Shown in pieces: positions 271 to 57,662 of a stretch of 64,000 nucleotides of DNA. The position numbers and the translations under genes are program-made. How positions within the stretch are numbered: the stretch's first letter is position 1; each line of letters begins with the position of its first letter. Under the pieces are notes generated by a model. The model was given only the letters and a program-made list of their open reading frames with translations. It had not been told where the DNA came from and ran no database searches. The stretch is from Plasmodiophora brassicae (taxonomy: Eukaryota), in NCBI GenBank assembly GCA_036867785.1, contig CP145409.1, positions 1,860,001 to 1,924,000 of the forward strand. The letters run 5' to 3'.

Positions 271-1961
271 ATGTCTATCGACAGCATCATGGCGGCGGCG
301 CCGTCCGACGCCGCCGTCTGTGATCGGGATGCCATCGTGTCTGATCGCGTCACGTTCCTGCAGAGCGGCGCAAAGTCACGGTAAGCATCCCGCCCAGCCC
401 GCCCCTCGATCGTCGAATAACGCATCGACAGGGTGGCGTCGTGGCTCTCGATCATGGATACCATGCGAGGGTCCTTTCCAACGCATACGGTCGCGATTGT
501 TCACAATGCTCTGGACCTCGACACATCCCGGGCGTGTCTTCGTGATGCGTTTTTCGTTGACGGCAATGTCGCTGTGTTCTTACGGGTGGCCTTGCTTCCG
601 AATTGCCGCCGCTTTGTTGACGAGTACCAATGGAGCGGTGATCGGTGGCTGTTGACGAGGCACGACATCGACCTGTTTTCCTACGTCAGTGGATCCACAC
701 TTCGATGTGTCAGCGTCGACAGCATGGACAAAGTCAATTCTCGTCGCCAAACCACCAGCAAGGTCTCGACTCGTACTCGCTGGCATTTGATGTGCCTGGT
801 ACACTGAATGACCTCCGTCAGATTCTGATGGTCGCTCCAGATGGGTTTGCTTACAACCCACACGCGGCGGTCGACAACAAGTTCAGCCATGAGGTCGACA
901 AGTCCAGCGACGATGTAAGAGAGGCCGCCCGCGCTGAGTTTGCAAGTTTACATGCGGCTTTGGAACGCTGTGGAGTCCAGGTTCCGAAGCATGTCAGACA
1001 TTGTTTTACGGTTAGGTGTTGAATCTCTTTGATGCAGATCGTCCTGATTGCAAACCCTGAGTTTCACGATACGCCTGACGCTGTATTCCCAAACAATTGG
1101 TTTTCGACCCACTCCAAGTCAGGTAATACGGGCCGTTCGGGTCGCTTCGCGTGTCGCCTCATCGCCCACGTTAAACGATGCAGAGGTTGGCCGTGATACG
1201 CTCGCGTTGTATCCCATGAAACCCGTTTCACGTCGAGCCGAAAGGCGAGCTGAGATCATTGCCCGCATCCAAGCCGTGCATTCGTACGACAACCTAGTCG
1301 ATCTGCGCAAGTTTGAGGAGGGCTCCGCACCACAGTTTCTGGAGGGAACTGGTATGCTCCTTCTACAAACGGCGCTAGCACGCTGGTGTTAACATCACGT
1401 CTTTGTTTCAGGCAGCATGGTACTTGATCGCGTCAACCGAGTTTGTTACGTGTGCCTTTCGGAACGGTCTACGTTGCCACTTGCGACGCAGTGGTGTTCG
1501 ACAATGGGATACAATCTTCACGCGTTCCACGCGACGGACGCATCCGGGTCGCCCGTCTATCACACCAACGTGATGATGGCTGTTGGGTCGCGGTTCGCGG
1601 TTGTATGCGACCAGGCTGTCGACGATCAACACGAACGCGCGCGACTGTTGGACCAGCTTCGAACCACCGGCCACGAAGTGATCTGTATCAGCCGGGCACA
1701 GATGGCAGACTTCTGTGGGAACATTCTGGAGCTCTGTAAGTCGTCGTGCGTGTAACTCAGTTCACGAATGTGACCGATCCTGTAGCAAACGCGTTTGGCC
1801 AATCCGTGCTGGTTGCATCGACCCGGGCCTGGAAGGCGTTCGGAGAGGAAATTCGTACCCGTTTCGGAAAGCTCGTCGACGAAGTCGTGCACGCGGACAT
1901 CCCGACGATTGAGTCAGTTGGTGGCGGTGGTGTCCGGTGCATGATTGCCGAGCTGTTCTGA
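271..1961 (+). CDS. Amidinotransferase / arginine deiminase-related hydrolase (CtlX-like), multi-exon, with N-terminal extension
   Basis: Spliced exons give ILMVAPDGFAYNP, DTPDAVFPNNWFSTH, LYPM..RRAER, FLEGTG|SMVLDR, YHTNVMM and terminal TIESVGGGGVRCMIAELF. Start codon is tentative. Confidence 0.85.
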
Positions 1962-2157
1962 TATACACAACCGCACACCCTCCGTTCGTGGCTGCGATCC
2001 TGCATTCGAGAACGATCCCCCGACTCGAGAAAGGTTCGAGAGCGGTCCCGACCTTCGTTTCCCAGACTGGCAATGTGCGCCATTGCACGCTAACCTGTTC
2101 ATGGGGCCCGACTGGATTGTATCGTCGTAGCAAGCGGAGCGCTGGTGTGGCCCTTCG

Positions 2158-3575
2158 ATGCCGGCGTCGTCTTCGACAGCATCCGACGGCAACGTCAATA
2201 CAGGGTCGGCGGGCGATGACGACGTCGCCGCCAGGGCCGTTGACTTCGCGTACGAATCATTCGCTAACCAGCTCCAGCTGAAACATTACCTCTTCCCGCT
2301 GGGCGGCGCTGCTGACGAGCAGCCAGCCAACAAGCTGACCTGGTCAGTTGGCGCCAAGGACATTCTGGACCAGTTCTGGACGGACGAATGCTACCACAGG
2401 AAGGCACTGAAGTCGATGGTCGCTCCATATGACCTGCTGTGGGTGATTCGGTGCCACTGATTCAGTGTCAGGTTTCGACGATGGACATCCTAGGCGACAT
2501 GCTTAACGACCGTGAGATGGACAGCGTCTTCGGCAACACCCGGGACCGGTTCGCGCTCGACCAGGGCTTCTACTTCCATCTGCAGAACCTCATTGGCGAG
2601 AACGTGCTGTTCCAGAACATTTGCCCTGTCATCCTCGTGTATGCACCGCTGTTCAGACTGTACAAGGACTTCGCCTCCGGCTATAGTGAGTGTGCCGGAA
2701 GACTCCTGTCTGGATGCTGACAACGTGCCCTGCAGAGCACGGCGTGCTAACCCTGCAACGTATTCGCCTCGAGTCGCCTCGTATTGCGAAGATCATCGAC
2801 CTTGCCAATGACGTGCCTCTTGAAACCCTAATGTACTCTTCGGTGAATCGAGGTACTGGATCCTGGGGCCCGTTTCGATCGTGCAGTGCAACTGAGGTTG
2901 ACGACGGTGTAGTGTCTCGTCTTCTGGTAACGCTGTCGAGATTGCGCCGGTTGCATGACGCGCTCGATATGAAGGTGCCGGACGATCTGAACGAGGCCTA
3001 CCGCCTGATCGGGGCGCTGTCGCATGAGATCAGTAACGCCCAGTGCCACCGACGAGAGATCGACCAGCTGCGTGACATTCAGGAACGATTGTTCAACGGT
3101 CGCGTCACGATTGCCAATGGTCTTCGGTTTCTCGTTCGATACGGCGTGCTCGAAAAGGTACGACGCAACCGTTTGTATAGACTTGCTCTTCACGGGTCTG
3201 ACGCTTTCTACCCAGGTGGACAAGACGCGTTACCGGTTCCGGCTTGCCTTACCCAAGAAGTACCTGTTCGTTCTGTGCAACGACCTCCTTCTGTACGGGA
3301 CACCCACGACGTCGTCAGCGCCGTCGCTGATCAAGCGGATTCTGCCGACGAGCGGGATGCGCCTCGAAGTTCTGTCGCCAACGCGATTCCGCATCGATTC
3401 GCCGATGAAGTCGCTCGAGGTCGTCGCGCGCGACCCACCCCATGCAAGGAAATGGATCGGTCAGTTTGGGGAATCCGATCTGTCGTTGATCCTCGCTGAC
3501 CGACAGCACAGCCGACATTCGGCGGACGCTCGAGATGGAGTCTCTTCAGAAAAGGATTCGCGAACTGCCGACTAA
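2158..3575 (+). CDS. Divergent DH-PH (RhoGEF-like) protein, multi-exon
   Basis: DH-like segments (DECYHRKAL, SVFGN, LFRLYKDFASGY, LETLM) followed by a PH-like tail (RFLVRYGVLEK, YLFVLCNDLLLY, FRIDSPMKSLEVVA...KWI). Confidence 0.6.
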
Positions 3576-3704
3576 CCTGAAAGTGGAACCCAGGACCGAA
3601 CCGGCACTGGCTCATTCCATCAAATCGTCCACGTCATAATGGCATCGGAACGCGAAGGACCGCCTGTGGGGTTTTAATAGATACAAACAGTAAACCTGCA
3701 GCAT

Positions 3705-5984
3705 TCACCAGACGTCGTTGCACGTGCATGTCCCATCGCGAAGATGATGCCGGCGGGACCGATCCCAGATGATGATGTCGCGATTGTAGATCGCCGATAC
3801 GCGCTTCGCCGTCTGATGACAGTCGGAGCACATGCGAACGTTCGTCGCTGCGTTGATGACGTCGCTACCCGGCACCGTTTTCAATGCGTACGCCAGCGCG
3901 AACATCTCGCTGTGGAACATCTGCGACCCTTCGGTGGAGTGAACGTTCAGCGCCTTTGTGAGACTCGAGTGCGCATCTCGGAGCGCAACGTCAAACCGAT
4001 ACCGACTATCGTCCGACTTGAACTGGGCGGGGCCACCAGCGAGGATGACGGTTGTCGTGCCATTCGGCGTACTAAGCTCCTTCGTCTCCATCTCGTCACG
4101 AATCCGCTCGGCGTCACTTGCCCGACCGCACTCGGCGTACGTGTCTGCCATCGTTTGATAGCACCCGGCAAGCATATCGGGATCGACACCATCCTTCAGA
4201 GATCGAATTCGGTCGAAGGTGCGTTCGGCACGAGGAAGGTCATTCCGCATCCGACAGCCATTGAGCAACGTTGACAGGGCGTCCAGGGTCGGAGACGACA
4301 ACGCCACTTCCTCGGCAGCGTCCAGATCGCCCTTGTGGCACAGCAGGTCGACCCTCGAAGGGGCACTCGACAGCAGGTCGTCGGCAGAACGAAGGAGGCC
4401 TGCTTTTGCCAGAGAAGCGATAGCGTTTTCGTCCGGCGTCAACCCGGCCGCTTTCAGTTGCTCGAAGATAGCAATCGCCTTCTCGGGCACGTCATTGTGG
4501 CAGTACGACGTCATCATGGCCGAGAAGACGGGGACGTTCATATTCGTCCCATCGAAGATTTGCTCGGCGACCTGCAACTGACCGCACCTTGAATAGGCAG
4601 TGATCAGGGCGCTAACGACACTGTCGTCCATCATCAGCCGTCGTGTCGTCCGGGAATAATCACGAAGTTCGTTGAGAGCCGGCAGGTTGAAGCACCGGCC
4701 GCTGGCACTGATCAGGCCAACAAACGTCTCGTTCGCCACTTCGATGCCACGTTGCAACATGTCGCGAAACACGTCCAGGCCTTGTGGAACGCGATCGCAC
4801 TTGGACAGGACCGCTGCGATCGTGTTAAAGATTTCGTTCGCCCATCGTATGTCGGCGGCCTTGACGTACTGGAACAGTTCCAGGGCCTTGTCGGCCATGT
4901 CGTGGTCGCCATACACGGTGATCATGGCGTTGAACACGGCTGGGCCCCGATGTTCCGCCGAGTTCTTCAGGCGGAACACGCGTTCGGCCTGTTGGATCTC
5001 GGTACAATCGCTGTAGGCGGCGATGAGCGCGCACTGGATCGCAATGTCGTTCAGCAGCATCTTGCGTTCGCGAACGTACCCGTACAGGACGCCGACGGCG
5101 GACGTGTTCCGGGCGCGACCGCACGCTGCGATCAGGGCGACGATGGCTGGGCGACTCGGGACGATGCTGCGCGCCTTCATCTGCCAGAACAATTTCAAGG
5201 CCATGTCGACCGCTTGAACAGACGTCGCCGACAGCACGTTCGACAGGAGCTGCTGTGACGCCGGGACCTGCATCGACTGCATCAGGTGCAGGACGGTAAA
5301 CGCGGCGTCGACGCGTTCTTGTGACAGAAGCGCTGCGATCAGGTGGGCGAACACTTGTTGATCCGGTGCGGGTTCTGTCTTGCCCTTCTTCAGGTGATGC
5401 ACGAGGCGGGCGGCCTCATCGGCACCTTCTTTACAGTTGCTTTCCGCACAGCAGGCCGATAGCATGGTTAACAGTTTGCCGGTCAGCACGCCCTCCCGAA
5501 GGGCGTCTCGGACGAGGAACAGGGCCAACGACGGTTGTTTCGCTACCCGGCAGAGGTGGGCGACGGCGAACATGACGTTATCGGATCGTATGCCGCACTT
5601 GTTGTACAAATCGAGAGCCTCGCGTACCATGGGCGGGTCGGCCGCCAGGCAGCAGGTGACAAAGGTGCCGAACAGCGCATCGGGGACAAACGCGCCTTGC
5701 GACAGGGCGGCGTCCAGCACCTCAGGCGCCTTCGCCGGCATCCGGCGCTGGCAGAACTCCATCATCGATTCGAACACGTGGACGTCGGCCCTGGGCAGGA
5801 CGCGTTGAAACAGGGACCAAGCCCGCTCGGGGTCCTGTTCGTCGGCTAGCGCGCGAACCGCCAACGACGGCGTCCCCGATTCCATGCACCTCACGAATAG
5901 CGATGACGGCGGCGCAACAGGGTCTGCTGCGGCGGCAACACCCGAGAATGCAGGCCGGCAAGCGATGCGGAACGCCAGTCGCAT
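3705..5984 (-). CDS. Pentatricopeptide repeat protein with C-terminal DYW-type deaminase domain
   Basis: Intronless ORF with about 35-aa PPR motifs (e.g. VFNAMITVYGDHDMADKALELFQ) and C-terminal HSEMFALAYAL..NVRMCSDCH..RHHLRDGTCTCNDVW. Likely start is M71 of the listed ORF (MRLAFRIACRPAFSG), resembling a transit peptide. Confidence 0.9.
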   Translation of the reverse strand: MRLAFRIACRPAFSGVAAAADPVAPPSSLFVRCMESGTPSLAVRALADEQDPERAWSLFQRVLPRADVHVFESMMEFCQRRMPAKAPEVLDAALSQGAFVPDALFGTFVTCCLAADPPMVREALDLYNKCGIRSDNVMFAVAHLCRVAKQPSLALFLVRDALREGVLTGKLLTMLSACCAESNCKEGADEAARLVHHLKKGKTEPAPDQQVFAHLIAALLSQERVDAAFTVLHLMQSMQVPASQQLLSNVLSATSVQAVDMALKLFWQMKARSIVPSRPAIVALIAACGRARNTSAVGVLYGYVRERKMLLNDIAIQCALIAAYSDCTEIQQAERVFRLKNSAEHRGPAVFNAMITVYGDHDMADKALELFQYVKAADIRWANEIFNTIAAVLSKCDRVPQGLDVFRDMLQRGIEVANETFVGLISASGRCFNLPALNELRDYSRTTRRLMMDDSVVSALITAYSRCGQLQVAEQIFDGTNMNVPVFSAMMTSYCHNDVPEKAIAIFEQLKAAGLTPDENAIASLAKAGLLRSADDLLSSAPSRVDLLCHKGDLDAAEEVALSSPTLDALSTLLNGCRMRNDLPRAERTFDRIRSLKDGVDPDMLAGCYQTMADTYAECGRASDAERIRDEMETKELSTPNGTTTVILAGGPAQFKSDDSRYRFDVALRDAHSSLTKALNVHSTEGSQMFHSEMFALAYALKTVPGSDVINAATNVRMCSDCHQTAKRVSAIYNRDIIIWDRSRRHHLRDGTCTCNDVW

Positions 5985-6863
5985 TGTCGAGGCAGCTCGC
6001 GTCACCATCACGGGGATGGTGCTGCAGCTCCCCACTGACGCAGTCCGCCACCACCCGGCTGGCGGCATCGGAGTATTTTTGTCCCCCCGCTCCAGTGACA
6101 GTGTCGATGGGACGCGAGCAACAGCCAACATCCGACTCATGAGACTGCAACCGGGAACGCGAAACGGCGGTTGCAACATCGACGTAGCTCGCACTGCGAT
6201 CGTCGATCATCGGTGGTATGTAGGTACAGCTCCCGCTGTCGTCGCAGTCCGCAAACGACTGCGTCGCAGGTTTTATCATTGTGCCTGTTTCGAGAGGTGA
6301 TGCGGTGCGGGTTCTGTGGGCGACGAATCTCGGCTGCTGGGCTGCACGGTAAGGACAGGGTTTGGCGTCTTCTCCCGTTTGCCGAAGCAGACGTGCTCGA
6401 ACCAGCGCGATTCGCGTTCGTCTGACTCGACGATGGTGGGCAGCTGCTTGTGTCGGGATACAACTGACCAGGGCCTGATTGTAAACATGGGGCCTCCCGC
6501 GACGATGCACGTTCTGCGTTTCACTATCGGCAGGTTCGCGTCGTCTTGTTCAACGTGCTTAGGGGGCGGCGGCAGCGCGTCAAACTCGCGGCCGGCTGGG
6601 GGATGCCTCGGCATGCTTAAGCACAGCACGTGCGTACAGCCACGCCAACGCCAGCCGCGATATTCTCGATGATCGCTTTACCGTACCAATTATTTCCCTA
6701 AAAATCGACCTGAACGGGGTTTCGACTGCCGATCAGCACCGGGCAACAGTGCCACATGGCGGTTCCTGTACGTCCCTGCATACGCGGCACCGACGATGCG
6801 CATTCGACAATGCGGCCACTGCTGTCACGCAAGGCACAACGCTAGGCTCAAAGGCAGTACGAT

Positions 6864-7948
6864 TTAGCAGAGGTGATCGGTAAGCTCCTTCTGTCGACTC
6901 TTTCGCCAGGCATGCTGCAGGCCCAGTTTGACTAGACGCTGGGGTAGGTTGGCGCATGCACATCTTTGCGATAGCGTACGAATTAGGAGTCTGATGATCG
7001 TGTAGCAAACGAGCACGACCAGGAACGGTATCGACTTTACAGCCACTGTGACGTCGTCTCCGTGCCAGCTGTGTTGAGGACCGCGAAATTAATGCACGTC
7101 TGCGATCTGCCACCTGACTCCCGTATACCTGCTTCCCTTGTAATGCCTGAATGCAGTATGGGCGCCTTCAGCGTAGACATGCTTCGGAATACTTGCAAAC
7201 CCGTAATCCTTGTTTTCAGACGTGAGCGCCCTGATATATTTCCCGATGCAGTATGAGAAGAACGCAGGCCCCGTGCTCATGAACACCTGAAAGTTAATGT
7301 TGAAAGACTGGGCTAGATTCTCACTACGGAGCAATGGCGTACCGTCGGATATTTCGTGAAGAAACGATGGTTCCAGTACGGCAATGCATTGATCAATAGT
7401 CGGGATAGAGGATGGTTCGGGACAGCGGCGAACAGATCATTCGAGAACCCAGCTGGCCATGTTTCGGGCGCCAGGAACCCAAGGTCGGTGCTGTTCAGCA
7501 CCCTGGAAACAGGCACGTTGCACCCGATATCCAGATCCATGTACACACCCCCGAAGTGATAGATCAAGAAGTACCGGATGGCATCGGCTCGTTGTATGTC
7601 GTATGGATACGTTACGTAGACGGGGACAAAATCCGGGTAATGCTGGCGCAGGAAGGCCAGCGCCTCATTGTCAGACCAGAGCCTGATCTCGTAATCGGCG
7701 TTCTGTTCGCGAACGAGCTGATGGGCAGGTTGCCATCGATCCGGAACCTGGTTCGTCTTGTAGACTTGGTGTATGATCCTAGGGATTCTGCTCGTTCCGC
7801 CTGCTTCCGCAAGCGCCGCTGACGGGACGTCCAGCGGGTAGTAGGCGGTACGAACATAATGCAGTACGACGGGCAAGATGCCGACCAGCATCGTTGCACT
7901 CGTTGCGGCAGCGATACCTGCCAAATAGCGCAGGCCATTTGCGGTCAT
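6864..7948 (-). CDS. GT32 glycosyltransferase (SUR1/CSH1-like inositol phosphoceramide mannosyltransferase), 3 exons
   Basis: IPRIIHQ, DAIRYFLIYHFGGVYMDLD (DxD), KYPT|VFMSTGP, GS|SWHGDD; N- and C-terminal hydrophobic segments. Confidence 0.88.
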
Positions 7949-8313
7949 GACGTTGAACTGCGAACCTGCCAACAAACGCGGCGCTCAGCGCCAAAGTGAA
8001 ACGATGACATCGGCATGCCATGCAGTCACAGCCAAAAGCAGACGGCAGCGCTCGCTGAGCTGCACCAAAGTGAGACCCCGACTTCGCGGTGCCATCTGTA
8101 CGGTAAGGGGTCCACAGCAGTCGACGGACGGGTGGGTGCCATTGGCGGGACGATCTGGACAGTCTGGCGGCAGAACGGCGCCAGTACAACGCCGTGGCCG
8201 GTCATGGTGGCGGCGGAAAAGCAGGAAGCCCGACTGCCGAGGCAGTCACGCGGGCGTCGGGCGATCCCCAGTGATGACGGCGGGTCCATTCCGTTTTTTG
8301 GAAGGGCGACGCG

Positions 8314-9738
8314 ATGGTGTCGCCGTTTGTCGTCGTCGTCGTCGTTGTGGCGATGAGCGGCGTCGGCACGGCCGACCGGCACGTGCAAGCGGAGATTGCG
8401 GTTGCCGATCGGCACATTCCGGCGTTCTTTGCGTCCTGGGGCGACGATCCTAGTTCGCCGCTGGCGGGAACGCTGGCGTCGGCGGGTGGCGATGCGTGCG
8501 GCCCGGTTTCCGGGATCGAACCCGGGGCGATCGTGATTGTCAACCGGGGATCGTGTACGTTCTCGACCAAGCTGGATAATTTGAAGTCGGCGTCTCCAAC
8601 GGCTGTCGTCGTCGTGGGCGGGCCATCGGACCGGTCGTGGATCGTGATGGGACCGGATGATATGGCCACACCGATCCCGTCTGTGTTCGTGCTTCACGAT
8701 GACGGAGACATACTTCAGTCATCGCTTGGACGTCAGGCGACAATCGCGCCGTACGCCAGGCCGAAGTTCGATTGGTCGGCCCCGATCCTTCTCGCCGTTT
8801 CTGTCGTCATTGTTCTGGCCAGTGCATTCTGGGCCTCTGAGAAAGAGCGGCTGCTGTCAAGGGGGATTGTTGCCTCTGAGGACCCCGATATCCCAGACGC
8901 AGACATCGCCACGCTCGACGCTCGCAGTGCCGTCACCTTCATTGTCATCGCGTCCGTCGTCTTGGTTATATTGTTCTTCTTGATCGACGAACTCATCTAC
9001 GTTATCTTTTTCGCCTTTGCAGTATCGGGGACGTCGTCCCTCGTGATTCTGATGGCCAAGCCATGTCGTGCAATGTTTCCGAAGTTGGATCACCCGATTG
9101 CTTTGCCCGTATTCGGAGCGCTTAACGTGATGTACGTCATTCTGACGGTGATCGCGTCTGCAATCACGCTGACGTGGTACCTAACGCGGCATTCGGACTG
9201 GTCGTGGGTCCTGCAGGACGTAATCGGTGCATCGCTGCTGATTACAATCCAACGTGTGCTCAGGATCCCGAATTTGAAGATCGCCACGATCCTGTTGGGC
9301 ATGGCCTTTGTGTATGATGTCTTCTGGGTGTTTCTGTCGCCATACCTTTTCAAGTCCTCCGTTATGGTGACTGTGGCGACTGGTGGCACGACTGGGGAAC
9401 GGATACCGATGCTTCTCGCCATTCCTCGTCTGCAGGACCTGTTCGGCGGGTATTCGCTGATTGGTTTCGGCGATCTGGCTTTGCCGGGTCTTCTCATATC
9501 CTACCTACTGCGGTTTGATTCGTTAAACCGAACGACCTACTTTGGGCCGGCAATTTTCGGGTACACATTGGGACTCGTAATCACGGATATCGCCATGATG
9601 GCGACGCAACTTGGGCAACCTGCCCTGCTATACCTGGTACCATGCACACTAGGGACAACGTCCTTCCTCGCATGGCGAAACGGGCACCTGCGCCCTATGT
9701 GGAAGGGCGAGCACCTGGACCATCGTTTGCTCGGCTGA
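8314..9738 (+). CDS. SPPL2: Signal peptide peptidase-like 2 (PA domain + GxGD aspartyl intramembrane protease)
   Basis: Signal peptide, PA domain (VNRGSCTFSTK), VYDVFWVF, GFGDLALPG, QPALLYLVP. Confidence 0.93.
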   Translation: MVSPFVVVVVVVAMSGVGTADRHVQAEIAVADRHIPAFFASWGDDPSSPLAGTLASAGGDACGPVSGIEPGAIVIVNRGSCTFSTKLDNLKSASPTAVVVVGGPSDRSWIVMGPDDMATPIPSVFVLHDDGDILQSSLGRQATIAPYARPKFDWSAPILLAVSVVIVLASAFWASEKERLLSRGIVASEDPDIPDADIATLDARSAVTFIVIASVVLVILFFLIDELIYVIFFAFAVSGTSSLVILMAKPCRAMFPKLDHPIALPVFGALNVMYVILTVIASAITLTWYLTRHSDWSWVLQDVIGASLLITIQRVLRIPNLKIATILLGMAFVYDVFWVFLSPYLFKSSVMVTVATGGTTGERIPMLLAIPRLQDLFGGYSLIGFGDLALPGLLISYLLRFDSLNRTTYFGPAIFGYTLGLVITDIAMMATQLGQPALLYLVPCTLGTTSFLAWRNGHLRPMWKGEHLDHRLLG

Positions 9739-9843
9739 TCTCCGTATACTCTCGCACTTCTATTGTAATTCCATACATGCACGCTCAACTGTACCGCCAC
9801 TTCAGACCAGACGGTTCGAGTAATTGCGGGGCGTCTATCTAGG

Positions 9844-10902
9844 TTAACCGTCGAATTCGTCGTCGACAATTGGGATGTACCCGATCAGCTGGTTGTACCC
9901 TGCCGATTGCAGGAACTCGGCGGGCAACCTCTTCTTGATGCTGCGGATATAGTACGCGAACGACACGATGATGGCGGCGGACGAGATGAACCAGAGCAGG
10001 AACGGGTGCCGGCTGGTGGCCCAGTAGAAGAACTGGAATAGGAACAACGTGCGGAATACGATGGGTATGATGACGAACGCGCTGTGCACGTTCTCATTCA
10101 AGGCGGCACGACGCCCTAACTGTAATCCGATTAGGTACCCGGTCATCACATGGAACGGTATGTACAGGAACGCGATCAATGTAGAGATGACCAGGGGGAG
10201 CACCATCGTCTGCGCTCTTGACGACAGCAAAGCGGACGTCACGAGCCCCTGATAGGTGCCGTAGCCCAACGAAATCGCCATGGACGAGAATAGACAGTGC
10301 CGGAGATCGCTCAGGCGTATGGCGGCCTCCTGTTCGGATTCGCTGCCCAGCCTCTGCGTCTTGCTGCGAATCATGAAAAACTTGTACGCCTCCTCGCCGG
10401 ACACCTGCGCGAACAGCAGCAGAAGGATGCTCAGGTAGACGGAGCGCACATGGCGAACCAAGGGGTGTGCCATGTTCAGCAAGATCACCATCAGCAGGAG
10501 AATGAACGGCGCCGTCGCGAACGCGATGGCATATGTTTTGATGGTATCGTTGGGCGACACGACGTTTGTCGTATGCGACCTCCAGACAAGGAAACCGAAC
10601 GGCACGAAGAACAACGGGTACGCCTGGATAAAGGATGGCAATGTCAGAACAGAGGCGGGCATCGGCAGCGGCTATGGACGGCCAACCAGTGAGAACGTTG
10701 GATAGAGGAAATACACGACAAACCATACGGCGACGAGCGCACCAATGATCAGGAGCGACGTGACGTTCAACGGCACTATGGGTTCCTGGGGTGCGCCTGC
10801 GTCGATGGCCATTGATTCGATGTCGCGGTGCGGGTCATCAGTGAGCGGCGGGGGGCCCAAATCATCGCGCTTCTCGGGGTCCTGCAGCGGCACATTTTCC
10901 AT
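9844..10902 (-). CDS. Multi-pass membrane protein, PrsW-like (degenerate), 2 exons
   Basis: One GT-AG intron at about 10624-10688; multiple TM helices with EEAYK, LGYGTYQG and FHVMTGYLIG resembling PrsW motifs. Confidence 0.6.
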
Positions 10903-14945: not shown

Positions 14946-17554
14946 ATGGGCGGTTGGTGCCTTCGTTTCGGAGCCGTGTGGCCGTCGCTCGTCGTGATCG
15001 CGGTCGGCGTCGGGGTCGTCGACGCTCTCGGCCTTCGATCCGGCGACAATGTCACCCGGATCGTCAACGCGAGCGCTGCCGTCGAGCACTCGCAGGTGCT
15101 GCTGAAGGCCCTGATCGATGCCGATGGGGACGGCGGCACCATCACGCTGCCCAATGTGGCCAGCAGCGAGCTGGAGCAGATCGTCGAGTTCATGAACACC
15201 GTCCCCCATCACGAGGTAAACGTACCAGCGTACGTGCTCCTTCGTCACTGACCACCCGATAGGTTCGTCTCGCTCAGCAATGGGCCCAGGACCAGTTGGA
15301 CGCATCTGGCCTGGATGCACAGTGCTGTCTGTTAACCACCGCAACCTACCTCGACATGCACCCGCTCATGACCGCAATCGCGTCCACGAAACGTACATGG
15401 CGTGATTTCTCTGCCATACGCGACAAGGTCCACCACGACGCGTTATCGTTCGTCGTGGACGAGGCCCCTGGTATGGTCCGTCTTTCACAGGTCGCCGCCT
15501 CCGACGCCCAGAAAGACATCGTTAAGCGAATTCGCGACCTGCTCATGGCCGGTGGAAATGCCACCATCGTCAACAGTCTCCGGTGGAACGTCCTCGGCAA
15601 CGTGTTGCACTGGGCTATACGCCATGGAAACGAATCGGTCGTCGAGCTGCTGGCGACCGCCCCCGGGATCGATATCAACGCTCAGGACAGGTTCCAGAAG
15701 CCGCCATTGTTCGTCGCCGTATCTCAGGGGCACGTCCGCGTCGTCGAGCTGCTGCTGAGGTGCCCCGATGTCGACGTCAATGCCGGCAACCTCTTTATGG
15801 AGACGCCCCTGCTCAGAGCCGCGTCACTCGGGAACCCCGACCTGATCGAGTTGCTGCTGAAAGCGCCCGGGATCGACGTCAACGCCGGCGACATGCAACA
15901 GGTCACACCGTTACACGTCGTGGCGTCGTCCCCCCGGTTCGATGACCCAGAACAGCAACCCAAGTTGCAGCGATGCCTCGAGATGCTGCTGAGTGCCAAC
16001 GAAATCGACGTCAACGGGCGCGACCTTGACAACATGACGGCCCTGCACTGGACGGTTGCCAGCGAGCACGCCGTCGGCGCTGCGCTCCTGCTCGCTGCTC
16101 CTGATGTCGACGTCAACGCCCACGACTGGCGCCTGCAAACACCGTTGCATTTGGCAGCGATGAAAGGGCACGTTGGCATCGTCCAGGCGCTGCTGAGCCA
16201 CCCCAGCGCTGTCGATGTGAACGCGCGGGACGAAACGCGGAAGACGCCGTTGCACCTGGCAGCGACGAACGGTCATACCGACGTCGTTCGGGCGCTGCTC
16301 CAGAACGCTGGCGTCGAGGTGAACGCTCGGGATCAGAAGAGGATGACGGCGTTGCACAGGGCCGTCGACCAGCAGCATGCAGACGTCGTCGCATTGCTGC
16401 TGAACGCCACCGGAACCGATCTCAACGCCAAGGACGCCCGTCAGATGACGGCATTGCACATGTCCCTGCTCGAGGAAGAACCCGACGCGGGCGTCGTCTC
16501 GTTGCTGGTGAGGGCCCCCGGGATCGACGTCAACGCTGCCTGCTGCTCTTCGTGGACCCCTCTGCATTTGGCCGCTGCTCTCGGCGACGTCGCAGCTGCT
16601 GACCTGCTCCTGAACCATCCCGCGATCAACGTCAACGCCCGCGATGGAAACCGCATGACGCCGTTGCAGAGGGCGGTTATCCGTCGGAACGTCGGCGTGG
16701 TCGCGCTGCTGTGCCTTGTTCCGTCTGTCGACGTCAACGCTGCCCACGACGACCTGAGGACGTCACTGCACTGGGTGACAGGCAATGCTGAGATCGACGT
16801 GAGCATCGCTGTCGTGTTAACGAGCGCCCCCGGGATCAACGTCAACGCCCGCGACGTTGATGGGCGAACGCCTCTGCACTGGGCAGCGGCCATTGGGCAC
16901 GACGATGCTGTCGGCGTACTGTTAACCGCTGATGGGATCGATGTCAACGCTCGCGACAACGACCGACGGACGCCGTTGCATTGGGCCGCTGCCGGTGGAT
17001 ACAACGCCACCGCCAGTTTGTTGTTGGACCATCGTCCTGGCGTGGACGTCAACGCGCTAGACAGGGACGTCGTTGCGCCTCTGCATGTGGCCGTTAGCAA
17101 CGGCCATACCGGCGTCGTCGAGCTGCTGATGAACGATCCAGAGGTCGACGTCAACGTTCGCGACAGGTTCCTGCGGACGTCATTGCATTTCGCCGCTGCC
17201 ACTGGGCAGGCGCACGCGGCCGCATTGCTGCTGAGCCATACCCCCAGCGCCCTCACCAGCGCTCGCGACGTGCGACACAGGACGCCGCTGCACGTGGCCG
17301 CGTACTTTGGCCACGCTGGTGTTGTTATGCTGCTGCTCACGACGGCCGATATCGCGGTGGACGCCAGGGATGCGTACCAGAGGACGGCGCTCGACTATGC
17401 GACGTACCGCCGCCACGGCGCGATCGTATCGCTGCTCAAGGCCCGTCGTCTCGGGCGGCGTCCTCACCGCCTGGATGGCGTCGTCGGGACCTTCCGCTCC
17501 GTCAACCTTGGCACCGACTGGGGATACTATACCAGAGGCGACTTGTCGACCTAG
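14946..17554 (+). CDS. Secreted SKP1/BTB-like + 18 ankyrin repeat protein (copy A)
   Basis: Hydrophobic leader; LRSGD..TITLPNV..IVEF..LLTTATYLDM; intron 15216-15262 joins the exons in frame; 18 ANK repeats. Confidence 0.9.
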
Positions 17555-17790: not shown

Positions 17791-20199
17791 ATGTCCAGCG
17801 GCGGCAATCGTCGTCTGCGCCGCCACAGGGCGACATGGGTGTCGCTGGGCGTGTTCGGCCTGGTCCTGGGGCTGGGCGACGCCGTCCTCCGGCTGCGCTC
17901 GAGCGACAGCGTCTGCCATGTCGTGAACGCGAGCGCCGCCGTCGCCCACTCGGAAGCATTCCGGGGCGTGGTCGCCGCCACCGCCGCCACCGTCGTCCTG
18001 CCGAACATCGGCAACGCCGCACTGGCGCCCATGGTCGAATTCATCCATCGAACCGCCCCTGCTGACCAGGTACACGTCTCGTCGTGCTACGCTGTAATCG
18101 TTGCCAAAGGGCCAGTTCGCCGAGCAGTGGGTCTTGAACCGTCTGGCAGTCGACGGTCTGGATGCCCAATGCTGCCTGATGACCGCCGCCAACTACCTCG
18201 CCATGTTCACGCTGATGCAGGCGGTCGCGTCCACGAAACGTACCTGGAGCGATTTCGCTGCCATGCGCGGGATGGTCCACCGCGACGCGATGTCGTTCCT
18301 CGTGGGCCACGTCCCAGGTACCGCCCGCCTGCGGCAGGTCGCGGCAGCATCAGGCAGTGCTGACCAGCACGCGACCGTCCAACGAATCCACGATTGCATC
18401 GTCACTGGCCGTGGCAGTGCCACGTTCGTCAACAACGTCCGGTGGGATAAGTACGGGAACCTGTTGCACTGGGCCGCTCGCCATGGCGACCCATCGATCG
18501 TGGCATCGACGTCAACGCATGCGACAGGTTGAACAAGCCGCCCTTGTACACGGCCGTATCCGCCGAGCACGTGGACGTCGTCGAGACGCTGCTAATGTTC
18601 TCAGGCGTCGATGCCAACGGCCGGGCGTTCTTCCTGGAATCGCCCCTGCACCGAGCCGCGTCGTTGGGGAACCCGGCGGTCATTGCCATGCTGCTGGGTG
18701 CGGCCGCGATCAATGTCAACGCGCGCGACACTGAACACGCCACACCCCTGCATGTCCTGGGGGCATCCTCTCGGTTCGACGATGGGGCGCACCAACCCCA
18801 GCTACGACGCAGCGCCGAATTGCTGGTGAACGCACCCGGGATCGACGTCAACGCCGCCAACGAGGACAACATGACGGCCCTGCACTACGCCATCATCCAC
18901 GAGCGCACCGTCGTTGCACAGGTGCTGCTCAGTGCCTCCGGTATCGATGTCAACGCGGGCGACCGCGACCAGGACGCGCCGATCCATGTGGCGGCGGATG
19001 CAGGCCAGGCTGACATCGTCCAGGCGTTGCTGGGCCACCGCCCCGTCCGTGTCGACGTGAACGCGCGCGACCGCAAGAACAGGACCGCCTTGCACAGGGC
19101 CGTCATGCGTGGACGCGAGCACGTTGTCAAATTGCTGCTGAACGCCACCGACATCGACGTCAATGCGCGAGACGTCCATCAGACAACATCGTTGCACCGT
19201 GCCCTGGTTCGGGACGTACCCAACGTCAACGTGATCACGTTGCTGGTGAACGCTCCTGCGGTTGACGTTAACGCGGGGGACGATACCCTGTGGACGCCGC
19301 TGCATGTGGCCGCTGCTCGTGGACAGACGGCGGCCGCTGAGGTTCTCCTGAGTCATCCAGACATTGACGTGAACGCTCGCGATTGGACCCAGACGACGCC
19401 GCTGCTGGTGGCGGTGAAACGCCAGAGACTCGACGTGGTCGCCCTGTTGCTGGGCGTCCCGGCTGTCGACGTCAACGCTGGCGACGACGACCTGGCAACA
19501 CCATTGCATTGGGCGGCATCCAGTATCGAGGTCGACGCGAGCGTCGCTGAGTTGCTGCTGGCGACCCCTGGTATCGACGTCAACGCCCGCGATGGCCACC
19601 AGGGCACGCCTCCGCATTGGGCAGCGTCCGTCGGATACGGCCAGGTTGTCAGGGCGCTGATGAACGCTGTCGGGATCGACGTCAACGCCCGCGACATCGC
19701 CCAGCGGACGCCATTGCACTGGGCCGCCCTTGGCGGATACGTCGACGCCGTCGACCTGATGCTGGGCCACTCTGACGTTGACGTCAACGCGCAGGACATC
19801 GGTCAGATGTCGCCGCTGCATCTGGCCATCCGCAACGGGAACGTTGGCGTCGTCGAATCGCTGATGAAGGCGCGCCAGGTCGATGTCAGCGTCGGGGACG
19901 AATTCCAGCGGACGCCATTGCATCTGGCCGCCCGCCTTGGCCAGGAACAAGGTGCGGCGTTCCTGCTGCTGAAGGCCACCAGCGCGACTGTTAATGCTCG
20001 CGACGTGAACCGCACAACGCCTCTGCACGTCGCTGCCGCCCTTGGACATGCTGGGATCGTCAAGTTGCTGACGACCGTGGCCGGGCTCGATGTGCACGCC
20101 AAAGACCTGGATGGCATGACCGCGCTGGAGTACGCCCTGGGTCGCGCCCATCATGGTGTCGCGTCGCTGCTGGGTTCGTACGTGCCCGGAAGACGTTGA
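17791..20199 (+). pseudogene. Secreted SKP1/BTB-like + 17 ankyrin repeat gene (copy B), frameshifted in ANK1, possibly splice-rescued
   Basis: Intron 18070-18109; 22 nt missing between 18501 and 18502 relative to copies A and C; the downstream 556-aa frame is intact. Confidence 0.7.
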
Positions 20200-20462: not shown

Positions 20463-22969
20463 ATGTTCAGGACCAACCGGTGTATGAGGACTACCATGTG
20501 GATATCGCTGGCCGTGCTTGTTCTGCTATCCGGGGGCGACGCAGCGCTCAGGCTGCGTTCCAGCGATGGGGTCGCCCACGACGTCGACAGGCGCGCGGCG
20601 AGCGCCCACTCGGACGTGCTGAAGCACCTGCTGCCGGCCGGCGGCTCCAGCGGCACCGTGATTCTGCCCAACGTCGCCAGCGGGGAGCTGGCGCCGATTG
20701 TCGAGTTCATCAACACCACCGCCGATTATGACGTACGCACCCGGCACGCACGCCCCGCCCCCCGTGTCTGAGCACTGAACAGGCCGACGTCGCCGAACGA
20801 TGGGTCCTGGACAAGCTGGCAGCATCAGGGGTTGCCGAGCAGTGCCGCCTGGTGACCGCCGCCAACTACCTCGCCATGCACCCGCTCATGAGGGCGATCG
20901 CGTCCACGAAGCGAACATGGGGCGACTTCGCCGCCATGCGCCAGGTGCTGCACCCGGATCCGCTATCCTTCCTCGTGAGCAACGCCCCCGCTGTCGTCCG
21001 CATTCAGCAGGCCATGGCCACCGACGATCAGATCGCGATCGTCGAACGGCTCCGTTGTCTCCTGAACGCGGGCGGAAACGCGACCTTCGTCAATAACGCA
21101 CCATGGGACGCCTGCGGCAACGTGTTGCACTGGGCCGTACGCCATGGGGATCGACCGATCATCGAGCTGCTGGTAACCGCCCCCGGGATCGATGTCAATG
21201 CTCCTGACGCGTCGCAGAGATCGCCGCTGCACCGCGCTGTCGCTGCCGAGTTCGCCGACGTCGTCGCGTTGCTGCTGAAGTCCCCCGATGTCAACGTCAA
21301 CGCCCGGAACGCGCTCCTGGCGACGCCCCTGCACAGAGCCGCGCAGCTCGGCAACGCTGGCATCATTGGACGGCTGCTGCATGCGCCCGGGATCGACATC
21401 AACGCGCGGGACGACGATCTGGTCACGCCGCTCATCGCGTCGGTGTCGACGCAGCGGTTCGACGACCCCGCGCACCGACCGGAATGCCACGCGAGCGCCC
21501 TGATGCTGATCAACGCGCCCGGGATCGACGTGAACGCAAGAGACGTTGACAACATGACCGCCCTGCACTGGGCGGTCACCCTCAGACACCCCGGCGCGGT
21601 CCTGTTGTTGCTCAGCGCGCCAGCCATCAATGTTAACGTGCAGGATCGCCACCTGCAGACGGCGCTGCACTTGGCGGCGGCGACTGGCCAGGCCGAAATC
21701 GTCAAGGCCCTGCTGAGAGGCCCGACCGAGATCGACGTCAACGCGCGGGATCGGAAACAGTATACGCCATTGCACAGAGCGGTCGCCGGTGGGCACGCAA
21801 AGGTCGTCGCGTTGCTGCTCAACGCCGCCGGCATCGACGTCAACGCAAGGGGACCCCGGCAGATGACCGCCCTGCACGGGGCGCTTGCCAGGCAGGCGCC
21901 CAATGACGACGTCGTGCGGTTGCTGGTGAGCGCGCCCGGGGTCGACGTCCGCGCAGGCGATGGTCATCTGTGGACACCACTGCATTGGGCCGCTGCCCTG
22001 GGGCATATCGCGGCCACTGACCTTCTCCTGACGCACCCGGATATCGACGTTAACGCCCGGGACGCTGCTCAAACGACGCCGCTACTACGAGCGGTTGGCG
22101 GCCGCCACGTCAACGTGGTCGTGTTGCTGCTGAGTGTCCCGACGATCGACGTCAACGCCGGCGACGGGGACCGGATGACCGCATTGCACTTGGTGGCATC
22201 CAAGGCCGATATCGGTCTAGACATCGGTCTCTGGTTGCTGGACGCCCCTGCGATCAACGTCAACGCTCGCGACGATTGCCGACGCACGCCCCTGCACTGT
22301 GCCGCTGCGACCGGGCACGTCGACGCCGTCGACGTGCTGCTGGATTGCCCCGGGATCGACGTCAACGCTCGCGACCACGACCTGCGAACGCCGTTGCACA
22401 GGGCCGTCGTTGCTGGCGTCGCCGGCGTCGTCGAATTGCTATTGAGTTACCCCGGGATTCAGGTCAATGCACCGGACAGGGACCGCATGGCCCCGCTGCA
22501 TCTGGCCATCACCCACAGCCATGGCAACGTCGTCGAATTGCTGATCGGCGCCCTGGACGTCGACGTCAACGCGCGCGCCAAGGCCGGCAGGACGCCGTTG
22601 CATTTCGCGGCGCGTTCCGGTCAGGACGGCGTTGTCGCGCGGCTGCTCAGTGCCACGAACGTTGCCGTCAACGCCCACGACGTGAACCGTCAGACGCCGT
22701 TGCACGTCGCCGCGTCCCGCGGGCACGTCTCCACGGTCAGGTTGCTGGCAAGGGCGGCCGGCGTTGACGTCAACGCGAAGGACGCGCTTCAGAGGACGGC
22801 ACTGGACATTGCCAGGGCTCGTGGCCACGACGGCGTCGTTTCGTTGCTGAATGGCCGCGCGCCGCCGAACGGCACGGCCGATCGCCAGGACCGGGCGACG
22901 CGTCCTGCACGCCAGATGCGTCTCGACTGGGAGTACTATCGCGGATGGTCGCCGCCGATGAGCGGTTGA
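20463..22969 (+). CDS. Secreted SKP1/BTB-like + 17 ankyrin repeat protein (copy C)
   Basis: Leader MWISLAVLVLLSGGDAA, LRLRSSDG..VILPNV..LVTAANYLAM; intron 20733-20782; 17 ANK repeats. Alternative starts at 20484 and 20496. Confidence 0.9.
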
Positions 22970-49363: not shown

Positions 49364-49434
49364 GCGCCTGTGGTTGAATGGTACAATGGGTCGTTGCCAA
49401 CGACTTGGTCCGGATTCGATTCCCGGCAGGCGCA
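49364..49434 (+). tRNA. tRNA-Gly (GCC), T-stem variant
   Basis: Cloverleaf: GCGCCTG/CAGGCGC acceptor stem, GGTCG-TTGCCAA-CGACT anticodon arm, TTCGATT loop; T-run terminator near 49446-49453. Confidence 0.9.
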
Positions 49435-49969: not shown

Positions 49970-50333
49970 AACGGGTCCTCGTAGTTGCCGCCACGAATTA
50001 CCCAATATTATTGCGTTCGGATTGTCAATCCTGCGTTCATCGGCGAACTTGGCGTTCATGCAGGACCCGTCGTGACCCTCGATCAATATCGTACGGTCGG
50101 GGGAGCCCGAATCTATCTATAATACACTGGCCGTCAAAATCAAGGACACGTCAGCAGCCCCTGTTTGGACGGGCGGCGTGGTGGGAAACTGCGCGCGGCC
50201 TGAGGAGCGGCGGCCCTGTCTGATTCGCGTGTGCGTGTCGCAGGAGGTCGGCCTCAGCCAGTCACAGGAGCCGCGTGTCTCGTCGTCGTCGTCATCGTCG
50301 TCGTCCGCGTTTGCCGCTGCCGCTGGCCCGCCC

Positions 50334-50658
50334 ATGGTCTGCATTTGACACTCGCTGCTCGTGCCGGTTCTGACGCGTGCGCCGCTCAGCCCAGCGCAAG
50401 GAAGCTCGCTTCGCAAAAGTTCAACCAGAATGTCACGAAGAGAGGCCTGGTGAAGAATAAGAGCAAGGTACGTGTCCTCTGCAGCGGTCGTGTCAGCGAA
50501 TCGCGCGCGCGTCGTCTCATGCGTTGCGGTTGCGGTAGGCGGAGTCGACCGACAATTCGTCTCCCGTCGGCCCGGTCATGCTCGGCTTCTTCGTCTTCGT
50601 CGTCGTCGGGTCTGCCGTCTTCCAGATCATTCAGTCGGCCATGAGCGGATTGTTTTAA
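50334..50658 (+). CDS. SERP1: RAMP4/SERP1 (66 aa)
   Basis: Exons 50334-50336, 50390-50467, 50539-50658 give M|PSARKLASQKFNQNVTKRGLVKNKSK|AESTDNSSPVGPVMLGFFVFVVVGSAVFQII. Confidence 0.9.
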
Positions 50659-50753
50659 AATCCACGCCATCCCCCTTCAATACACCAGCCGGTCCCCCCC
50701 CCCGCCCCTCCCCAAACGGACGGTTCGGCTCGCCTGCGGCGCGATGCGTTCGT

Positions 50754-56700: not shown

Positions 56701-57662
56701 GTGATCTCGGCGATGATGTTGGAGATGGCGGTGCGGGCGGCGGCCGCTTCCGTGCTGCTGATCGTCGGGATCGCCAGCAGCTTCGTGATGATGTCGATCG
56801 TCAGCGACGCCGATCGCGAGCAGTAATGGCTGGCCAACAGGTCCAGCGATGCGATGATGGCGACACGCGTCCCCGTCACCTGCCATCGCGACGCATTGTC
56901 GTCGTCGAGGTCGAGCAGGAACACGATGTTCCAGACGGACGATACTGTACGACGACGGTTAGGGCGAGGTTGAATGCATGCCACGTTGCTTACGGTTGTC
57001 CTGGACGACCAGCAGGTCGCTGTTGCAGTGGACGAGCGTGGTGACGCAGACGACGGCAACGTCGCGTACGTTGTGATCGGCGTGCATGTACAGGGATTCC
57101 AGGCCGGTGACGAACCCGATCAGCATGGGCGCCAGCGCCCGATGGACCAGCGTGATCAGCGTCTGGATCGTGTACGATCGTCCTACGCCATGCGGTCAGA
57201 TGCCATCGGGGCGACGTCCACCTGAAGAGACTGTGGCTGACCGCCCGGTTTGACGACCTGTTCGTAGGCGGCCTGGACGGCAAACGTGCGGTCGAAGACG
57301 GCGGCGAGCTTCAGGTAGAGTAACGTGGCGCTGTGGCGGACGGATTGCAGGAAGTGGCCCAGGTTCGGGGCCAGGTCCACAGCGCTGCCCACGACCAGCA
57401 TCTCGAGGACGTCGGACGCACCGGGTCCTGAGCCTGAGTTAGTCACCGGGAGGGATGGCGAAGTGACAGCCGCCGACGAACGTGCCGCCTTCTGTTCGGC
57501 GTTGTCGACGGCCAGGTGCGTGTAGAAGGCGGCAACCTCTTCGAGCCATTCGATCGCGAGAGGTCGCTGCCCGTCGCGCAGCTCGAACTCGGTCAGCGAT
57601 TTGATGTGCTGTTTCACCGGCTGTTGGGGCCCCGGCGACGCCGCGATAGCCTCAGTCGCCAT
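50754..57662 (-). CDS. Very large HEAT/ARM-repeat protein, multi-exon
   Basis: Chain of minus-strand ORFs with HEAT signatures (LADTDVGVRRRA, LADSDIDVRVEV, LGDEHEVVRKVA, WDDDDVAVRNAS); exon structure approximate. Confidence 0.7.

Follow-up and report, generated by a model that had tools for sequence, protein, structure and literature searches.

PPR-DYW proteins are the catalytic core of cytidine-to-uridine (C-to-U) editing in plant organelles and are rare outside plants. Their occurrence in non-plants has been known since 2010, and the heteroloboseans have a small nuclear family of them tied to a few mitochondrial C-to-U sites. In Naegleria and other protists, these proteins accompany mitochondrial C-to-U editing (PMC11946409), and the plant-type mitochondrial editing of Naegleria gruberi and Acrasis kona, with DYW proteins, is cited in two papers (PMC11946409, PMC13386178). 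Within Rhizaria, the paradinids (Ascetosporea) have PPR-DYW genes together with demonstrated mitochondrial C-to-U editing, plus adenosine-to-inosine (A-to-I) editing (Yabuki et al. 2025, PMC11946409). The main text of a 2026 survey gives a count of '31 DYW in Rhizaria', taken from NCBI NR, and names no species (PMC13386178); these very likely include proteins of Plasmodiophora brassicae (Rhizaria, Phytomyxea), the clubroot parasite. No publication on the DYW genes of P. brassicae itself was found in the literature searched, which lacks most subscription journals; two differentially expressed P. brassicae PPR genes have been reported, in the text available without mention of DYW or editing (PMC8298192). 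Here, we describe a P. brassicae PPR-DYW gene located at positions 3708-5984, on the minus strand, of a 64,000-nucleotide stretch of contig CP145409.1 (referred to below as the window), and we show that it is one of a family with at least 21 members in this parasite.

The gene, its transcription and its product

The window is nuclear DNA of P. brassicae and not of a plant, because the product of a neighbouring open reading frame (ORF) at 8314-9738 on the plus strand shows 99% identity to a protein recorded under the name Plasmodiophora brassicae, and because the 90% cluster of the PPR-DYW protein contains CEO98933.1, a 'hypothetical protein PBRA_007047' (UniRef name 'DYW domain-containing protein'). 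The gene is, thus, already deposited in public databases under an automatic name (PBRA_007047). An earlier note, made from the letters of the window, had reported a plant-type PPR-DYW protein in an apparently non-plant genome and had envisaged a plant-derived contig as one way in which it might prove wrong; the genome is indeed that of a non-plant.

The coding sequence, as taken from the ORF list and its translation, encodes 759 residues, with the start ATG at 5982-5984 and the stop codon at 3705-3707. The minus-strand reading frame is open from this stop codon up to 6194, so that the ATG at 5984 is M71 of an 829-residue reading; an alternative in-frame ATG at 6006-6008 would give a 767-residue form, and NCBI protein models of 758 and 767 residues sit in the cluster of the protein. 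Unspliced transcript contigs from four sequencing runs lie over the gene on the minus strand (3424-6033), covering 3654-6021 in run X1, 3424-6028 in X2, 3511-6022 in X5 and 3659-6033 in X7. All four runs, from four studies, span the gene (at least 3654-6021), with zero joints inside it. None of the runs used is catalogued as RNA; their contigs were taken to be derived from spliced RNA because they carry, in the genes flanking the PPR-DYW gene, 13 joints skipping 50-70 nucleotides with GT..AG or CT..AC ends. The gene is transcribed and has no introns, as the earlier note had held, although the lack of introns is not distinctive, because the neighbouring signal-peptide-peptidase gene also appears to be intron-free. 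The four contigs stop within 12 nucleotides of one another, slightly upstream of the ATG at 6008, and there is a gap in cover at 6033-6126. Because the contigs end at 6021-6033, the 824-residue ORF starting from an ATG at 6179 is probably over-extended; these ends, which cannot fix the start of the transcript, give a weak hint that the protein begins at M63 (767 residues) or M71 (759 residues).

The encoded protein is almost certainly a true member of the PPR-DYW family. It matches the Pfam families PPR (E 9.5e-32; 107.5 bits, cut-off 25), PPR_2 (3.3e-30) and, over its last 79 residues, DYW_deaminase (PF14432; E 1.7e-20, 73 bits against a cut-off of 24). Both parts of the catalytic HxE/CxxC signature can be read in the translation, all coordinates here being those of the minus strand: HSE (H691-S-E693; 3906-3914) provides the zinc-ligand His and the catalytic Glu, and CSDCH (3816-3830) provides the CxxC zinc ligands (C719-S-D-C722) followed by a family-invariant His. 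The C-terminus reads RRHHLRDGTCTCNDVW, and its end, HHLRDGTCTCNDVW (3708-3749), carries H746, C753 and C755 of the second zinc site and finishes in DVW, a form of the DYW tripeptide in which the Asp and Trp are kept and the Tyr is replaced by Val. H691, E693, C719 and C722 are kept in the window protein and in both of the strain variants aligned (97-99% identical). H723, H746, C753 and C755 do not vary across the 26 aligned rows; by analogy with OTP86 (PMC7611903), these last four residues would be the ligands of the structural zinc. The Pfam match, the motifs in the translation and the 26-row alignment agree with the earlier description of a PPR array with an HSE..CxxCH..HH..DG.C.C.DVW end and with both zinc sites kept.

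The structural predictions point in the same direction. An AlphaFold2 model of the full-length protein, built on the 26-row family alignment, has a pLDDT (predicted local distance difference test) score of 86.7 and consists of about 18 helical hairpins followed by an α/β domain. Its best PDB match, identified with Foldseek, is a synthetic PPR-DYW protein bound to its target RNA (9kfx_A, E 2.5e-22, 666 columns), and PPR10 and designer PPRs are also matched. The last 160 residues, modelled separately (pLDDT 92.1), superpose on the DYW domain of OTP86 (7o4f_D) with a Z of 18.8 and a root-mean-square deviation of 1.9 Å over 115 aligned of 135 chain residues, a match far beyond chance; weaker matches are those to 9kfx (Z 17.6), DYW1 (Z 12.9), bacterial deaminase toxins (Z about 10, best 10.6) and classical cytidine deaminases (Z 5-6). 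A sequence search of the PDB returned 9kfx (E 2e-27), 7w86 (1e-17) and 7o4e, the OTP86 DYW domain (8.9e-16).

The protein begins with 30 Arg/Ala-rich, nearly acid-free residues (5895-5984, minus strand, as are the coordinates that follow), which, by their composition, form a putative mitochondrial presequence. The first 30 residues of the 767-residue form include 4 R+K, 1 D+E and 9 A, consistent with the Arg/Ala-rich N-terminus of the earlier note; residues 1-21 have a pLDDT below 50 in the predicted model, suggestive of a disordered N-terminus, and Arg-rich, acid-poor N-termini are found in this protein and most of its paralogues. Residues 31-330 (4995-5894) constitute a family-specific module of degenerate, PPR-like helical repeats, delimited with the paralogue alignment and the model. 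Its Pfam PPR signal is weak (PPR_2 1.3e-8, with the top stretch at residues 207-241), but it is modelled as helical hairpins throughout and its language-model features match PPR clusters at 0.96. The central PPR tract, residues 331-537 (4374-4994), has P-, L- and S-like motifs (Pfam PPR 3.1e-27, four stretches), with motif lengths of 30-36 residues read off the helices of the predicted model; the L-like (36 residues) and S-like (30-31 residues) motifs and an E2-like stretch were read directly and not with PLS-specific motif models. Degenerate S2-like, E1-like and E2-like motifs follow at residues 538-639 (4068-4373), preceding the DYW domain, and residues 9-160 of the last 160 are aligned by HMMER to 445-612 of 9kfx, E2 included. 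The DYW cytidine-deaminase domain itself, identified by PF14432 and the model, occupies residues 640-759 (3708-4067) and has a shortened gating region.

A family of paralogues in P. brassicae

The last 140 residues were used as the query of an exhaustive HMMER search, which returned 1584 proteins at E <= 0.001, with only the query itself under 1e-30. The best non-self matches bear the signature GRT.L, DDRY, RHHHF, and 18 of 20 were named P. brassicae by cluster look-up. Together with the window's own cluster, PBRA_008080 and PBRA_008312, they make at least 21 distinct P. brassicae PPR-DYW proteins, a count drawn from protein databases and therefore a lower bound. All 21 exceed the Pfam cut-off for DYW_deaminase. 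Their full-length identity to the window protein is 32-38%, and their lengths range from 621 to 1235 residues, owing to central repeat tracts of unequal length. Mean pairwise identity among the 21 is 0.36-0.47 in the N-terminal module (31-330), which is as well conserved as the DYW domain (0.44-0.50); the central tract is the part most variable in both sequence and length, with an identity of 0.22-0.38 and an occupancy of about 15-17 of the 21 over residues 331-480 (identity 0.22-0.32 over 361-450).

The full HxE and CxxC signatures are kept in 13 of the 21 paralogues, including the window protein, and lost in the other eight. These eight (P0003, P0155, P0162, P0213, P0220, P0222, P0234 and P0294) have lost HxE or CxxC and have kept the four second-zinc residues and the C-terminal motif. 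They recall, by analogy, the division of labour in plants between degenerate and complete DYW proteins.

Proposed function and alternative explanations

We infer the mitochondrial location, RNA binding and editing activity of the window protein from its PLS-E-DYW-like architecture, the kept residues, its expression and the Arg-rich N-termini, a combination for which editing is the most likely explanation; the size of the family fits multi-site editing, and the paradinids provide a published precedent from another rhizarian lineage. The full proposal, that of a mitochondrial PLS-type PPR protein performing site-specific C-to-U editing, the window copy included, is somewhat favoured. Its components differ in strength: the window copy very probably acts on RNA in the mitochondrion of the parasite, whereas the chances that it catalyses the C-to-U conversion itself are about even. 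The Arg-rich presequence would carry the protein into the parasite mitochondrion, where the helical PPR tract would bind one strand of a mitochondrial transcript sequence-specifically. The variable central repeats may set the target, with the conserved N-terminal module serving a job common to the whole family, and the DYW domain, with its HxE/CxxC zinc site, would deaminate a cytidine just 3' of the bound stretch, converting it to uridine.

Several observations weigh against this proposal. The gating domain of OTP86 corresponds to H837-G891, with a β-finger at 870-891 (Takenaka et al. 2021, PMC7611903); replacement of the finger (Δ875-890GGG) 'markedly reduces the editing activity', and the DYW-specific Lys K915 keeps the catalytic Glu in an inactive state (PMC7611903). 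In the window protein, 12 residues separate helix α1 from the His of HxE, versus 28-29 in all nine named plant rows. Helix α1, the N-terminal part of the gating region, is present, but the β-finger is absent, with no strands predicted there. The K915-equivalent is Thr, in a position occupied by Lys in all nine plant rows and in 15 of the 21 paralogues. The PG box is degenerate, reading PNGTTTVIL where PGxSWIE is typical, with both β-strands of this element predicted in the 160-residue model (E44-48, E54-57). Twenty of the 135 OTP86 DYW residues have no partner in the model, and the E_motif (PF20431) match is weak (E 0.0082; 16.8 bits, under the Pfam cut-off of 27.3), this cut-off being exceeded in four of the 21 paralogues. 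The loss of catalytic residues in eight paralogues shows that the family tolerates non-catalytic members, and mitochondrial targeting is deduced from amino-acid composition only. We know of no editing site in P. brassicae, and, in the available text of the paper on its mitochondrial genome, 'RNA editing' occurs in the reference list only and is not discussed (PMC6823432).

Judged by its sequence, the window copy retains the chemistry residues but departs from plant DYW domains in one of the features that define them. It is not alone in this: the spacing between helix α1 and HxE is 27-30 residues in 11 of the 21 paralogues and 11-23 in the other 10, the window protein included, and four of the 13 catalytically intact paralogues, the window protein among them, are short-fingered. 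Because the β-finger and the Lys equivalent to K915 are missing, the window copy may edit without plant-type autoinhibition, edit weakly, or only bind.

The last of these options is the alternative that survives best. Plant PPR proteins, DYW ones included, act in splicing too, and the window protein could bind mitochondrial RNA without deaminating it, as a specificity, splicing or stabilising factor for intron-rich transcripts, any editing being performed in trans by a complete-DYW paralogue, as in plant E+/DYW1-type pairs. We consider this possible but rather unlikely. The missing finger and the Thr in place of K915 are what would be expected of a protein that only binds, given that deletion of the finger in OTP86 markedly lowers editing (PMC7611903), and the eight paralogues that have lost HxE or CxxC while retaining all four second-zinc residues indicate that non-catalytic roles exist in the family. 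There would be no shortage of intron-containing transcripts, since the mitochondrial genome of P. brassicae (114.7 kb) has 54 introns, and intact reading frames are hard to annotate in it (PMC6823432). However, H, E, C and C are all kept in three strain variants, which would be unexpected if catalysis were dispensable, and the short fingers of four of the 13 catalytically intact paralogues suggest that the finger is dispensable in this lineage.

It is improbable that the gene is a decaying relic without function. The short gating region, the degenerate PG box and E motif and the DVW end in place of DYW might be taken as signs of decay, but the 759-residue frame is intact, the two aligned cluster variants (97-99% identical) keep all the zinc and catalytic residues, the gene is transcribed in all four runs and the fold is predicted with confidence.

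The editing proposal can be extended, tentatively, to the whole group: phytomyxids may run an undescribed mitochondrial C-to-U editing through an old, non-plant branch of PPR-DYW proteins, with at least 21 genes and an N-terminal module of its own, in which the gated zinc shutter (β-finger, K915) has been dispensed with in about half of the members, including the window gene. If so, the deaminase would act without plant-type autoinhibition, and editing would account for part of the trouble in annotating intact reading frames in the mitochondrial genome (114.7 kb).

Relation to plant DYW domains and origin of the family

P0152 is the family member closest to the plant consensus, and its DYW region is 39-48% identical to the best matches listed outside the family. 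These include liverwort, moss, Ginkgo, conifer and angiosperm proteins and one from a lycophyte, without any preference for angiosperms, as well as records without a species name and a protein of the amoebozoan Balamuthia mandrillaris. For the DYW domain encoded in the window, identity to matches without a species name reaches no more than 52%. An unrooted IQ-TREE tree was built from 65 DYW domains (150 columns), with plant rows chosen as best hits and with no named Naegleria, Acanthamoeba, Physarum, rotifer, fungal, paradinid or heterolobosean sequence among its rows. In this tree, a branch with a support of 100/99 and a length of 0.9 separates the 21 paralogues, P0153 and P0160 from all 31 named land-plant rows, Balamuthia and 10 further rows. 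In a FastTree tree of 254 domains, P0172 and P0182 join the P. brassicae clade, with P0160, P0176, P0180 and P0223 immediately outside it. The family exists and is monophyletic, and these sequence comparisons support one origin followed by expansion within the lineage. B. mandrillaris, the only named non-plant row outside P. brassicae, nests among plants, beside Selaginella (97/92). Its protein, P0369, has a complete PPR-E-DYW architecture (DYW_deaminase E 5e-39); the name that it carries, 'DsRNA-binding protein 3', seems to be wrong, and it appears to represent a separate case that is nearer to plants.

The earlier note had considered the lack of introns compatible with horizontal transfer or retroposition and had called for a phylogeny of the DYW domain. 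The phylogeny separates the family from the 31 plant rows at 100/99 but does not decide between old transfer and old inheritance, and the suggestion of transfer or retroposition is weakened. Transfer from an early or unsampled streptophyte remains compatible with a tree that is unrooted and has best hits as its plant rows. Any transfer would be old, because there are at least 21 diverged paralogues with a family-specific module, a low identity to plant domains and a position outside the sampled plant radiation.

A recent acquisition from the host plant, or a plant-contaminant contig, is very improbable. It might be proposed on the grounds that P. brassicae lives within Brassicaceae cells, that the gene is intron-free and that non-plant DYW genes have been read in print as plant-derived transfers (PMC13386178, PMC11946409). 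However, the neighbours are P. brassicae genes with introns of 50-70 nucleotides, the family owns a conserved N-terminal module, and the angiosperm matches listed for P0152 are no nearer than those from liverworts, mosses and gymnosperms. Recent transfer from a brassicaceous host was rejected on the basis of the long, supported branch and the 39-48% identity to the plant-side matches listed, and the deep monophyletic placement of the family also counts against it.

An effector sent into the host cell, entering plant mitochondria or plastids and altering host organellar editing, is an equally remote prospect: the architecture is plant-like, the Arg-rich presequence might be readable by the plant import machinery, and a clubroot transcriptome paper covering host genes only reports night-time up-regulated host PPR and editing genes and speculates about parasite manipulation (PMC13247141), but the data give no pointer to secretion, no hydrophobic, signal-peptide-like N-terminus was seen in the composition of the protein, which was inspected without a predictor, and 21 paralogues with a conserved module resemble a housekeeping organellar family. 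The more general idea that some family members act on host organellar RNA, which the data neither support nor contradict, is likewise given very little weight.

Neighbouring genes and other features of the window

The PPR-DYW gene is flanked by genes at 1735-3511 and 6214-8028, which have many spliceosomal GT..AG introns of 50-70 nucleotides. The plus-strand gene at 2471-3511 has about one short intron per 200-300 nucleotides, and its last exon runs into the 3' end of the PPR-DYW transcript, giving a convergent overlap at about 3424-3654. The plus-strand ORF at 8314-9738 encodes an SPPL2-like signal peptide peptidase that has a PA domain. Apart from P. brassicae proteins, its best named relatives are SPPL proteins of land plants and charophytes (34-39% identity), with records without a species name reaching 40-52%; like the PPR-DYW gene, the peptidase gene is covered unspliced by the RNA contigs (8079-10500). 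Further along, the plus strand has a tandem series of three long ORFs encoding ankyrin repeats, at 15356-17554, 18595-20199 and 20876-22969 (Ank_2 E 8e-121, 6e-76 and 1e-90, respectively), in what looks like a local gene cluster.

The guanine-cytosine (GC) content ranges from 0.55 to 0.76 across the window. The stretch at 50000-57000 is very GC-rich (0.67-0.76 versus about 0.6 elsewhere in the window) and holds long, overlapping ORFs at 50779-52572 (plus strand), 51207-53198, 53315-54457 and 54547-55851 (minus strand), for which a Pfam scan gave zero matches at E <= 0.001. A single tRNA-Gly(GCC) gene is present at 49364-49434 on the plus strand, and a tandem-repeat scan of the window found none. 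In the databases, the SPQ-accession series of P. brassicae proteins at NCBI puts the tag '(mitochondrion)' on proteins encoded in the nucleus, apparently an artefact of annotation, which could mislead automated localisation.

Comparison with known PPR-DYW systems

What may be new about the family is its gene count, the conservation of its N-terminal module, how often the gating finger has been lost and its deep position beyond the plant domains sampled. A 21-gene family predicts multi-site mitochondrial editing, as yet unreported, in a major crop parasite; if this is true, Paradinida would be joined by a second rhizarian group in having such editing, and the detection of editing would help to improve how the mitochondrial genome of P. 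brassicae is annotated. The catalytically intact, finger-less members are natural variants with which to ask how far the 'gated zinc shutter' is needed, a point of relevance to engineered PPR-DYW base editors.

Plant PPR-DYW factors have variable N-terminal repeats, whereas the P. brassicae family has an N-terminal module of about 300 residues common to all paralogues. In other respects, the window protein resembles the PLS-class PPR-DYW proteins of land plants (OTP86, At3g63370; DYW1; moss PPR56 and PPR65) and the synthetic protein 9kfx: a P/L/S-like tract is followed by an S2/E1/E2-like cassette and a DYW domain, with the same HxE(x)nCxxC signature, the same C-terminal H..CxC..D-x-W zinc motif and the same fold (Z 18.8 with 7o4f, E 2.5e-22 with 9kfx). 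It differs from them in coming from a non-plant, in the absence of the β-finger (12 residues versus 28-29), in the Thr at the K915 position, in its PG box (PNGTTTV versus PGCSWIE) and in its tripeptide, DVW. The P. brassicae paralogues, such as PBRA_008080, PBRA_006811, PBRA_004378 and PBRA_008312, share its architecture and N-terminal module and form one clade with it; 11 of the 21 have a full-length finger, a full gating domain being seen, for example, in the PBRA_008312 type, and eight have lost catalytic residues, neither of which applies to the window copy.

The Heterolobosea, which belong to a different supergroup from P. brassicae, are likened to it here by description only. The same kind of comparison can be made with the paradinids, which are likewise rhizarian (Endomyxa) protists with PPR-DYW genes: they have one to three DYW sequences per strain, versus at least 21 in P. 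brassicae, and their DYW proteins are said to share a two-residue deletion with those of fungi (PMC11946409).

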